Position numbers and translations under genes: made by a program. A stretch of 64,000 bases of DNA from Rhodothermales bacterium. GTDB taxonomy: Bacteria; Bacteroidota; Rhodothermia; Rhodothermales; VXPQ01. The stretch is taken from assembly GCA_040904565.1 (NCBI GenBank), contig JBBDTI010000084.1, forward strand, positions 11,939 to 75,938, read 5' to 3'. The notes beneath the pieces were generated by a model. It worked only from the letters and a program-made list of their open reading frames with translations, was not told where the DNA came from and did not search any database. Positions within the stretch are counted from its first letter, which is position 1, and each line of letters opens with the position of its first letter. Positions 29,746 to 34,299 of the stretch are shown one piece after another.

Positions 29746-32238
<2,493 letters not shown>

Positions 32239-32270
32239 AATGGTATCGGGGGATACGTATTGGGGGTATA

Positions 32271-32307
32271 ACAAAAAAAGCCCACCTGCCGCGCGGGCAA
32301 GTGGGCT
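32271..32307 (-). terminator. Intrinsic terminator in the 5' leader of the sulfite reductase (attenuator)
   Basis: Minus strand AGCCCACUUGCC-cgcgc-GGCAGGUGGGCU followed by UUUUUUGU; G-U wobble fits the minus strand; about 32 nt before the ATG. Confidence 0.85.
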
Positions 32308-32341
32308 CTCGGAATGTGGATACGATAATCTCGATCCGGAG

Positions 32342-32467
32342 CTAAGAGGACCTCCGTTTGAAGCCATCCCCTACCACTGGCACGCACGGCGCGCAGGCGT
32401 TCGAACAGCAACAACAACAGGCTGCCGTCGGCATGTAAGGGATACGAATCACGATCATCGGCATCAT
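32342..32467 (-). CDS. Poly-cysteine leader peptide
   Basis: MMPMIVIRIPYMPTAACCCCCSNACAPCVPVVGDGFKRRSS* (TGT TGT TGT TGC TGT); alternative starts include 32458 and 32434. Confidence 0.75.
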   Translation of the reverse strand: MMPMIVIRIPYMPTAACCCCCSNACAPCVPVVGDGFKRRSS

Positions 32468-32716
32468 TTCGAGAATTATCACTTACGCTACGATCAGGCC
32501 ACGGGAAAGTTCACGATGAAGTTCACGGCGCGGATCGTGCTGTTCTGAAAAGTAGCCATCGGGGCGCCAACAGCGCAAGTCTTCACTTGCCGCCGTGCAC
32601 GCCTGAGACTCGGTGCCCGTACGGGGAGGCCCCTTCCGCACACCCTGGCGGGGTGCGTACCTCTTCGGCGTAACGCGGCGACGCCGAGCGGCACATAATC
32701 ATCGCCGACCATCGGG

Positions 32717-32742
32717 ATAAAGACGGCGTGCCGCGGCCCGTC
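32717..32742 (+). promoter_or_regulatory. Putative ECF promoter, degenerate copy (ATAAA-N17-CGTC), upstream of the ECF sigma gene
   Basis: ccatcgggATAAAgacggcgtgccgcggccCGTC; shares the ccatcggg context with the 33440 copy. Confidence 0.5.
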
Positions 32743-32795
32743 CGCGTATGGTCGATGGAGGGTCGGGGCAATCATGCGTTCGCGCGAGGGGAGAA

Positions 32796-33431
32796 ATGTT
32801 TGAGAGGCTCCGGCGTAGATTTGGTCGAAGACCCAAGCGGCGAAGTAATGCGGAATGGGTGCGCGATCTTGCGGCGGCCGACTCGCATGCGATCACGGAT
32901 CTTCGTGCGGAGCTGTTGCGCGGCGTCCGGATCGTACTTCGTCGCCGTGCTCCGGCGAAGGCGGAGGATCTTGCTGAAGATTTCGTCCAGGAGGCCGTGC
33001 TGAAGATCCTCGTTAGCCTCGACTCGTTCCGAGGAGACAGCCGCTTCATGACCTGGGCCCAAACCATCGTTGTTCGAGTCGCCTTCACGGAGCTGCGGCG
33101 GAAACGATGGGAGAACGTTTCGCTGGACGGACTCGTGGATGAGCGGCCGTTTGGGGGTCTCGACGCAGCGGGCGATGCGGCTGTTTCAGAGACGCTGTCT
33201 GAGCGGAATGCGGCCGGTCTGCTGCGCGAGCTGATGCAGTCGGAGCTCACCGAGAAGCAGCGCACCGCGATTGAGGCGGTCATGCTGCACGGCATGCCTA
33301 TCGATGAGGTAGCGCGGCGGATGGATTCGAACAGAAACGCGCTTTACAAGCTGCTCCACGATGCACGCAAGCGGTTGAAGGAAGGATTCGAGGCGCGCGG
33401 CCTGACCCTCGAGCAATTGCTCGACGATTAG
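32796..33431 (+). CDS. ECF RNA polymerase sigma-70 factor
   Basis: AEDFVQEAVLKI..LDSFRGDSRFMTW (region 2); LTEKQR..EVARRMDSNRNALYKLLHDARKRL (region 4); SD GAGGGGAG. Confidence 0.93.
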   Translation: MFERLRRRFGRRPKRRSNAEWVRDLAAADSHAITDLRAELLRGVRIVLRRRAPAKAEDLAEDFVQEAVLKILVSLDSFRGDSRFMTWAQTIVVRVAFTELRRKRWENVSLDGLVDERPFGGLDAAGDAAVSETLSERNAAGLLRELMQSELTEKQRTAIEAVMLHGMPIDEVARRMDSNRNALYKLLHDARKRLKEGFEARGLTLEQLLDD

Positions 33432-33439
33432 CCCATCGG

Positions 33440-33465
33440 GTAAGGTTTCCTCGCCGTAAAGCGTC
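33440..33465 (+). promoter_or_regulatory. Putative ECF promoter GTAAG-N17-CGTC upstream of anti-sigma and tlpA
   Basis: GTAAGgtttcctcgccgtaaagCGTCt. Confidence 0.65.
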
Positions 33466-33482
33466 TGGATGTTGAACGGAGG

Positions 33483-33743
33483 ATGATGAGAATGAAGCTT
33501 ACGCGTACCGTCATCAAGGCCATACTCGAAGCCGTTTTTGCCACACAGCCGGTCGAAATCGGCTGCGACGAGTGCTTTGAGCAGGTTCACCGATTTGCAG
33601 AGATGGAGCTCGCCGGTGAAGACGCCGCGTCGGCGCTCCCGCTCGTTCAGTCGCACCTCGAACGGTGCCGCGACTGCCGGGAGGAATTTGAGATGCTGCT
33701 GGCGGCGCTGCGTGCCGTTGCCGGAAACAACTCCCCGAAATGA
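33483..33743 (+). CDS. Soluble zinc-finger (ZAS-type) anti-sigma factor
   Basis: IGCDEC...HLERCRDCREE (Hx3Cx2C); no TM segment. Confidence 0.85.
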   Translation: MMRMKLTRTVIKAILEAVFATQPVEIGCDECFEQVHRFAEMELAGEDAASALPLVQSHLERCRDCREEFEMLLAALRAVAGNNSPK

Positions 33744-33759
33744 ATGCTTCGTACCTGAG

Positions 33760-34299
33760 ATGATGTCCGGAGAGCATAACACCGTATGGAGCCTGTTCCT
33801 TCTCGGCGCCGTGATGGTGCTGCTCGTCGTCTCCGGATGCGCGGGGGATGAAGATTCGAGAGAGGCCGTACGGTCGCCAGTGGCGGTTCTGGAGGCCGCG
33901 CCGGATTTCGAGCGTGTCACGATGGAGGGCGACACGCTACGCCTTTCGGAGCTCGATGCGAGCGCGATCGTGCTCAATTTCTGGGCCACGTGGTGCGCGC
34001 CATGCAGGGTCGAAATCCCGGGATTCATAGCGATTCAGGAAGAGATGGACGCTGAGCGGGTCCGGTTTGTCGGCGTCTCGTTCGACGAAGACGGATTTGA
34101 AGCGGTCCGGCCGTACGCTGAAGAAATGGGCATCAATTACCCCCTCGTGATCGGAGACGATGCACTGGCGAGCGATTTCGGCGGCGTGCCCGGCCTTCCC
34201 ACCACGTTCTTGCTCGACGGCGGCCTGCACATTCGCCAGCGGTTCGTCGGGGTTGTGGATGAAGAGACGCTGCGCTCCGTACTGGAGGACATGCTCTAA
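33760..34299 (+). CDS. TlpA/ResA-like thiol:disulfide oxidoreductase lipoprotein
   Basis: Lipobox VSGC; APDF, VLNFWATWCAPCRVEIP, GLPTTFLLD. Confidence 0.92.
   Translation: MMSGEHNTVWSLFLLGAVMVLLVVSGCAGDEDSREAVRSPVAVLEAAPDFERVTMEGDTLRLSELDASAIVLNFWATWCAPCRVEIPGFIAIQEEMDAERVRFVGVSFDEDGFEAVRPYAEEMGINYPLVIGDDALASDFGGVPGLPTTFLLDGGLHIRQRFVGVVDEETLRSVLEDML

Follow-up and report, generated by a model that had tools for sequence, protein, structure and literature searches.

The trpL, hisL, leuL, thrL, pheL and ilv leaders are the classical leader-peptide attenuators of enterobacterial amino-acid operons, and what is understood of sulfate-assimilation control comes mostly from protein regulators in Proteobacteria and from riboswitches or T-boxes in Firmicutes. 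Here we describe a short open reading frame (sORF) with five consecutive Cys codons, followed by an intrinsic terminator, upstream of a sulfite reductase gene (sir) in a 64,000-nucleotide (nt) stretch of DNA from a Rhodothermales bacterium (contig JBBDTI010000084.1, positions 11,939 to 75,938; hereafter the window). Judged from its sequence, this leader is very probably a ribosome-mediated transcription attenuator that senses charged tRNA-Cys.

The classical attenuators are summarized in the introduction of a study of mycobacterial polycysteine sORFs (Canestrari et al., Mol Microbiol 2020; 10.1101/834739), and the window leader has their design. It differs from the enterobacterial leaders in that it would sense cysteine, in that three operons of one genome share the device, and in that it is known here from sequence alone. 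Its stop codon lies inside the loop enclosed by the modeled antiterminator and not just before region 2, and it belongs to a Rhodothermales-like lineage, with no visible Shine-Dalgarno motif at the sORF or at sir. According to the mycobacterial study, the leaderless sORFs of that group (Ms5788A and relatives) respond to Cys-tRNA supply; their Cys tract acts on translation, by pairing with the Shine-Dalgarno region ahead of the following gene and with no terminator involved, and attenuation for cysteine by an upstream open reading frame (uORF) had not previously been described (10.1101/834739). Both systems place a poly-Cys sORF upstream of cysteine-pathway genes; however, the window leader has a strong terminator with a run of seven T's (T7), and its Cys run is modeled to pair locally rather than with a ribosome-binding region. 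A 2026 paper on attenuation in M. tuberculosis cites Cys uORFs as translational (PMC13236596).

Two further groups of Cys leaders have been predicted by others. The uORFC-8-2 motif upstream of cysS in Rhodobacterales is a predicted ribosome-mediated attenuator that shares with the window leader tandem Cys codons and a terminator stem with a U run (Brewer et al. 2021, PMC8632094). That motif belongs to Alphaproteobacteria, precedes a tRNA synthetase gene and has two Cys codons, whereas five to nine Cys codons precede biosynthetic operons here; no Rfam match or other sequence relation links the two. In Actinobacteria, candidate Cys leader peptides upstream of cys or cbs operons were found by comparative genomics, and that report describes no obvious terminators and proposes Rho-dependent termination (Seliverstov et al. 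2005, PMC1262725). These are likewise short frames with Cys runs before cys genes, but the terminator is explicit and conserved in our case. Naville and Gautheret (2010) mention cysteine in a reference only (PMC2965389). Searches for a cysteine leader or attenuator in connection with sulfite reductase, Bacteroidetes, Rhodothermus, Chloroflexota or sulfate assimilation returned nothing further, subscription journals and supplements being outside the search. The searchable literature yielded no published description for this lineage, and a preliminary description of this DNA knew of no characterized example.

The leader and its target gene comprise the following features.

32467-32342, minus strand: leader sORF, 41 codons plus TAG, encoding the peptide MMPMIVIRIPYMPTAACCCCCSNACAPCVPVVGDGFKRRSS.
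32443-32435, minus strand: region 1 (AUCCCUUAC), defined from modeled minimum-free-energy (MFE) structures.
32419-32405, minus strand: run of five Cys codons, TGT TGT TGT TGC TGT, the proposed ribosome stall site.
32387-32374, minus strand: region 2 (GUGCGUGCCAGUGG), the 5' strand of the modeled antiterminator, pairing with 32304-32291 in the kinetic model described below.
32342-32335, minus strand: post-stop strand GCUCCGGA, pairing with 32313-32305 (UCCGAGAGC) in the same model.
32310-32273, minus strand: intrinsic terminator, with 5' arm 32310-32296, loop 32295-32291, 3' arm 32290-32276 and T7 32279-32273.
32238-29746, minus strand: sir, encoding an 830-amino-acid (aa) NIR_SIR sulfite reductase (NirA-like), assigned by Pfam matches.

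The start of the leader reads ATGATGCCG on the minus strand, and the frame runs from ATG ATG CCG at 32467 to the TAG ending at 32342, 104 nt upstream of the sir ATG. Its peptide contains seven Cys and four Met residues; all four Met codons lie upstream of the Cys run, one of them adjoining region 1. The list of open reading frames gives an alternative start for the same frame at an upstream GTG (32482..32342, 46 aa). A terminator scan returned a hairpin at 32310-32276 with 15 pairs (8 G-C) and a 5-nt loop, followed by TTTTTTT, the first T's of which are used by the last pairs of the 3' arm. The hairpin has a folding energy of -26.6 kcal/mol, and the T7 tract ends 34 nt before the sulfite reductase ATG. 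We could therefore confirm what the preliminary description had reported here, namely an sORF with five consecutive, and in total seven, Cys and four Met that ends at 32342, and a 12-bp stem with a U-tract, which proved to be the core (AGCCCACUUGCC / GGCAGGUGGGCU, one G.U) of the 15-pair hairpin. The upstream neighbor is a divergent gene for an extracytoplasmic function (ECF) sigma factor (32748-33431, plus strand), so the terminator is not the end of another minus-strand gene and the leader is not a gene 3' end.

We then considered the Cys run in the context of the whole genome (4.02 Mb in 95 contigs, GC 61.5%). A six-frame scan found four runs of at least five Cys in any frame, where about 0.2 are expected from base composition by hand calculation. 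Three of the four are intergenic, and each is followed by a strong hairpin and a T run 7-35 nt after the stop codon (-24.4, -24.6 and -32.5 kcal/mol).

Window 32467-32342, minus strand: leader (i), preceding sir and a 181-aa gene.
Contig C79, 76716-76990, minus strand (locus L081/L101): leader (ii), nine Cys, preceding genes for a PALP-family CysM, a JAB/Mec-type protease and a ThiS-ThiF-rhodanese fusion (cysM-mec-cysO/moeZ).
Contig C83, 73060-73257, plus strand (locus L082): leader (iii), five Cys plus Met (CCCCCM), MMLCSAVDGCCCCCMDSH, preceding cobA-cysH-sirC.

The cobA-cysH-sirC products are a uroporphyrinogen methyltransferase (TP_methylase), a reductase for 3'-phosphoadenosine 5'-phosphosulfate or adenosine 5'-phosphosulfate (PAPS_reduct) and a sirohaem synthase N-domain protein; we take the cysM-mec-cysO/moeZ operon to be the thiocarboxylate-type cysteine pathway, as in mycobacteria. 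The three operons are steps from activated sulfate to cysteine, and this coincidence of the signal with sulfur function is the strongest single argument for an attenuator. We propose, on the sequence pattern, that sir, cysM-mec-cysO/moeZ and cobA-cysH-sirC form one Cys-attenuation regulon for sulfate assimilation. The fourth run, six Cys at C31:46388 (about position 1389 of locus L083), was rejected as a leader, being an antisense frame of a CAG/CTG repeat inside a 261-aa gene. Among 33 weaker Cys/Met clusters listed, three others had a terminator-like site, all weak (-11 to -15 kcal/mol).

These counts bear on the idea of a chance frame beside an ordinary terminator. GC-rich intergenic DNA does hold many short frames, but against some 0.2 five-Cys runs expected there are three, each with a terminator before a sulfur-assimilation operon, and the module recurs upstream of orthologues (see below), so that coincidence can be practically dismissed. 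The codons of the runs are also skewed. TGT is the minor Cys codon in the genome's long frames (1687 TGT versus 5682 TGC, 22.9%), and it fills 14 of the 19 Cys-run codons in the three leaders. In the cores of related leaders the TGT:TGC ratio is 56:28 for sir and 127:35 for cysM, 183 versus 63 overall; L091 and L106 were left out of these codon counts and of the Met counts given below.

Poly-Cys sORFs upstream of orthologues, which the preliminary description had suggested looking for, were found in two samples. A convincing sORF rich in Cys or in Cys and Met precedes the gene at 10 of 80 sir orthologue loci from a species collection; these are in Rhodothermales/Rhodothermia (L001, L002, L003 and L064), Balneolaceae (L019) and Chloroflexota (L030, L032, L045, L074 and L079). 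Most of the 10 have a terminator, none being visible at L045. Four further loci flagged by the rule (L033, L036, L038 and L047) were put down to chance; their CRxCCNAC lies in long GC-rich frames that lack a terminator. The second sample was an even one of 121 genomes from the window's order, 14 of which, besides the genome studied here, have a close sir orthologue; L099 and L100, 33%-identical paralogues of sir, were dropped from the counts. A Cys-dense sORF was found by rule in 10 of these 14, and two more showed by eye a short cluster (GCCMC, MCCCM) with a hairpin and T4, giving 12/14. For cysM, an orthologue was present in 42 of the 121 genomes and 29 foreign loci were taken. A strict rule requiring an sORF and a terminator was positive upstream of 20/29, versus 2/29 on the antisense control. 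We inspected seven of the nine misses by eye and observed a leader in all seven, overlooked owing to a long open frame or to spaced Cys (RCRCWCRCC in one family, for example). A relaxed rule recovered 29/29, that is, all 28 usable foreign loci plus this genome's own; L124, where the upstream sequence is 61 nt long, was excluded. We rejected cysH as a leader marker, as it has its own leader in just one of 29 loci; in nine relatives it lies downstream of sir instead. In one Chloroflexota metagenome-assembled genome (L032), two Cys/Met leaders that both contain CCMCCC lie in tandem at about -480 to -60 nt from sir, and each has a separate terminator.

The geometry of the module is conserved and the peptide is not. 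In related leaders, the distance from the first Cys codon to the stop is mostly 63-96 nt and that from the stop to the terminator 25-50 nt; the window leader and L002 are identical in both (75 nt and 36 nt). The sir terminator is nearly identical in L002 and in L161, the single additional leader found by a metagenome scan with the terminator core. The peptide ends after the Cys run diverge even among nearest relatives (SNACAPCVPVVGDGF, SSARALRLPVGWACH and LDARVARVPVGWPASS).

This pattern bears on a functional Cys-rich micropeptide, metal- or thiol-binding for example, that is co-expressed with the sulfur genes while the terminator merely sets a transcript end. Some small Cys-rich peptides are functional, and seven Cys in 41 residues might suggest one. 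Beyond the Cys (and Met) cluster, however, the peptides are unconserved, and the three unrelated peptides of this genome share just the Cys run and the downstream terminator; we regard a micropeptide as very unlikely. A similarly low probability attaches to a ligand- or protein-binding switch, such as a sulfur-metabolite riboswitch, with the Cys-rich frame as a by-product. SAM riboswitches control many sulfur genes elsewhere, and the leader is highly structured. Against such a switch, the covariance models of Rfam 15 gave no family at gathering score in the 64-kb window, and the region 32100-32900 gave two chance-level matches only (E 5-10). What is conserved is an in-frame Cys cluster at a fixed distance from the stop together with the terminator, with the surrounding RNA diverging, which fits decoding and not ligand binding.

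We modeled how a translating ribosome could affect the terminator. In the kinetic model, the RNA is cut just before the terminator 3' arm and only RNA downstream of the ribosome folds. Placing the ribosome on the Cys codons gave a mean pairing probability of the 5' arm of 0.80 (sir), 0.65-0.69 (cysM) and 0.68 (cobA), and moving it to the stop codon lowered these values to 0.39, 0.35 and 0.17, respectively. Without a ribosome the values were 0.51, 0.35 and 0.18, the upstream strand being held by earlier sequence. The modeled window antiterminator is a three-way structure. In helix 1, region 2 binds 32304-32291, which comprises the loop and the distal portion of the terminator 5' arm. In helix 3 the partners are the post-stop strand, whose first base is the stop-codon G, and UCCGAGAGC, which forms the proximal portion of the same arm, and both helices together would occupy the entire 5' arm and loop. 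Of two segments proposed earlier as antiterminator strands, AGUGG (32378-32374) was borne out as part of this structure, whereas GGCUU (32365-32361) fell in a local hairpin that the two nearest relatives preserve poorly. In the MFE structure of the untranslated leader, region 1 is predicted to pair with 32374-32366 and, with the local hairpin 32399-32375, to sequester region 2.

We suggest the following mechanism. Transcription would begin at the sORF or further upstream. With ample Cys-tRNA, the ribosome would pass the five Cys codons and cover region 2 (32387-32374); on reaching the stop codon it would cover 32342-32335 and sit inside the loop that helix 1 must close. With the post-stop strand covered, the terminator (32310-32276) would form and RNA polymerase would stop at T7. 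When Cys-tRNA is scarce, the ribosome would stall on 32419-32405, leaving region 2 and the post-stop strand free to pair with the whole terminator 5' arm and loop before the 3' arm is made, and transcription would read through into sir and the 181-aa gene. In the absence of translation, region 1 and the local hairpin would hold region 2, and termination would prevail. The same device would control cysM-mec-cysO/moeZ and cobA-cysH-sirC in this genome.

A number of observations weigh against this reading. No Shine-Dalgarno motif was seen by eye ahead of the sORF, and a promoter scan near the leader returned no sigma-70-like site on the minus strand; a GATAAT box found by eye at 32480-32475 (minus strand), 7 nt before the sORF ATG, may be the -10 element of a leaderless transcript. 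In equilibrium folding with a 30-nt ribosome mask at differing positions, the terminator formed at every ribosome position (P 0.78-0.98). Any switch must therefore be kinetic, as in classical attenuators. Folding with the ribosome-covered region masked, the check put forward in the preliminary description, hence failed to discriminate the states at equilibrium and gave a ribosome-dependent antiterminator once the RNA was cut before the 3' arm. An alignment of the three nearest leaders (the window, L002 and L161), too small a set to reveal covariation, showed mostly invariant antiterminator strands, which is conservation and not covariation, and 78 of 500 shuffles reached the observed pairing score. 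In 200 dinucleotide shuffles of the segment between stalled ribosome and terminator, the duplex energy of the window leader with the 5' arm did not stand out (-19.2 versus -17.4 kcal/mol in shuffles, p 0.22), and the number of 5'-arm bases paired in the MFE structure showed only a modest gain (16 versus 10.1, p 0.03). The latter metric reached p<=0.05 in only 1/17 sir and 1/29 cysM leaders. Nor is the leader universal. Of the 80 species-collection loci, 70 lack a leader, chiefly in Caldilineaceae, Phototrophicaceae and Thermoleophilia, and so do two of the 14 order orthologues, both from one genus; moreover, related genomes are not independent, and our counts overstate the support.

The weak antiterminator statistics of the window leader would suit a system in which the sORF and the terminator act without terminator/antiterminator competition, either by translational attenuation of the mycobacterial kind or by Rho and ribosome coupling with the hairpin as a stabilizer or pause site. 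According to the mycobacterial study, the sole experimentally characterized poly-Cys sORFs act on translation (10.1101/834739), and the whole 215-nt leader is unusually stable, as noted for Ms5788A (-90 kcal/mol versus -69 +/- 4.4 in shuffles, z -4.7). However, with its 15 pairs and T7 tract the hairpin has the canonical form of an intrinsic terminator, and all three leaders of this genome, like nearly all orthologues, have a terminator separating the sORF from the gene. In addition, the Cys run is modeled to pair locally with 32430-32421 and not with the sir start region, where there is no Shine-Dalgarno motif to mask. We consider control without an antiterminator unlikely.

Evidence for competition by an antiterminator came from the leader class as a whole, for which we relied on the duplex energy and a swap test rather than on the MFE metric. 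Duplex energy with the 5' arm was significant against dinucleotide shuffles (p<=0.05) in 22/29 cysM and 6/17 sir leaders. When each leader's own terminator arm was compared with the arms of other leaders, none of 2000 permutations reached the observed value in cysM, and 65 of 2000 did so in the sir class; L091 (just 'CC'), L106 (the rule picked the wrong frame) and L123 (arm mis-parsed) were left out of this test. In the cysM alignment, a change in the arm from GCCCCUCC to GCCUCUCC is accompanied, by eye, by a change from GGAGGGGC to GGAGAGGC after the Cys run. Among the three nearest sir leaders, 91.7% of cells were paired in each of the two helices; nine of 12 pairs were invariant in helix 1, and helix 3 had one broken pair and one pair in which both bases differ in L002 (U-A for C-G). 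An antiterminator is thus well supported for the leader class; that it also operates in the window leader is plausible from the models, the statistical support being good for cysM and only moderate for the window leader.

Overall, a leader sORF, a codon run for the pathway end product, an intrinsic terminator and a module conserved without conservation of the peptide were all found in the sequence. Together with the modeled upstream pairing that would compete with the terminator and the recurrence at other sulfur operons, these findings support the trp/his-type Cys attenuator of the preliminary description. A terminator-type Cys attenuator over three operons, if true, would fill a gap in sulfur control for Rhodothermales-like bacteria and Chloroflexota, and would add cysteine, for which such control is hardly described, to the amino acids under classical attenuation. 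The value of the case lies in the regulon view, the contrast between Cys and Cys/Met leaders and the conserved geometry; the module recurs through an order that includes complete genomes, and the proposed mechanism is simple and testable.

The contrast between Cys and Cys/Met leaders concerns Met codons inside or adjoining the Cys cluster, which we observed in 14 of 16 sir leaders versus three of 28 cysM leaders, interleaved for example as CMCCC, CCMCCCCMCM and MCMCCMPCCGCM. The window and L002 are the two sir leaders without Met in the cluster. An earlier suggestion that the leader possibly also senses Met therefore does not apply to the window's own Cys cluster but does fit most of its sir relatives. 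The shared trunk of the sulfur pathway feeds both cysteine and methionine, and the distribution of Met codons is a hint, though no proof, that the trunk leaders respond to methionine supply as well. More tentatively, and with rather less than even confidence, we speculate that the attenuators make up a graded sulfur regulon reading two amino acids. The trunk leaders (sir and cobA-cysH-sirC) would be Cys/Met and the cysM leader pure Cys, shortage of cysteine or of methionine would suffice to de-repress sulfite reduction, and the rare UGU codon would tune stall sensitivity. Cys or Cys/Met leaders were found in Rhodothermales-like genomes, Balneolaceae and several Chloroflexota, and in the same speculative scheme such attenuators might be a main, as yet unstudied, control of sulfate assimilation in several phyla.

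The leader also informs the annotation of the genes that it precedes. Sir matched PF01077 (1.5e-55) and PF03460 (1.4e-38) and contains two stretches each of NIR_SIR and NIR_SIR_ferr; among NCBIfam models it scored highest against the NirA family, at 252 bits, below the cut-off of 523. The gene starts at ATG 32238, with no Shine-Dalgarno motif visible ahead of it. The start at ATG 32367 given in the list of open reading frames was rejected; such an extension would place the terminator inside the coding frame, and orthologue alignments begin within residues 1-4 counted from ATG 32238. Beyond the NIR_SIR core, the protein has a C-terminal extension of about 250 aa (residues ~580-830; 30498-29746, minus strand), common to orthologues up to about residue 742-775, for which we found no family match, only a sub-threshold HEPN hit (E 0.007). 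The nearest named records are from Rhodothermales metagenome-assembled genomes (76-88% protein identity). The leader marks this 830-aa NirA-like enzyme as assimilatory, as had been proposed earlier, and the context supports that assignment, nine relatives carrying cysH on the strand of sir, about 1.5 kb downstream of it.

The second gene of the putative operon follows sir directly.

29741-29196, minus strand: gene for a conserved 181-aa protein of no family.

The 181-aa frame had no Pfam or NCBIfam family match; its product has a confident Atlas model (predicted template modeling score, pTM, 0.90), the look-alikes of which are all annotated 'hypothetical protein'. A homologue (35-58% identity) lies directly downstream of a long sir in 90 of 100 loci, a pairing that spans Rhodothermales, Chloroflexota, Thermoleophilia and Latescibacterota. 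Judging by this gene order, the 181-aa protein is a conserved, uncharacterized partner of the long sulfite reductase. The attenuator, if real, ties this neighbor of unknown function and the CysM/JAB/ThiS-ThiF-rhodanese operon to cysteine supply. On the other side of the leader (32748-34299, plus strand), an AhpC/TSA-thioredoxin-like gene comes after the gene for the ECF sigma factor, and the pair may connect the sulfur operon with redox or thiol stress.

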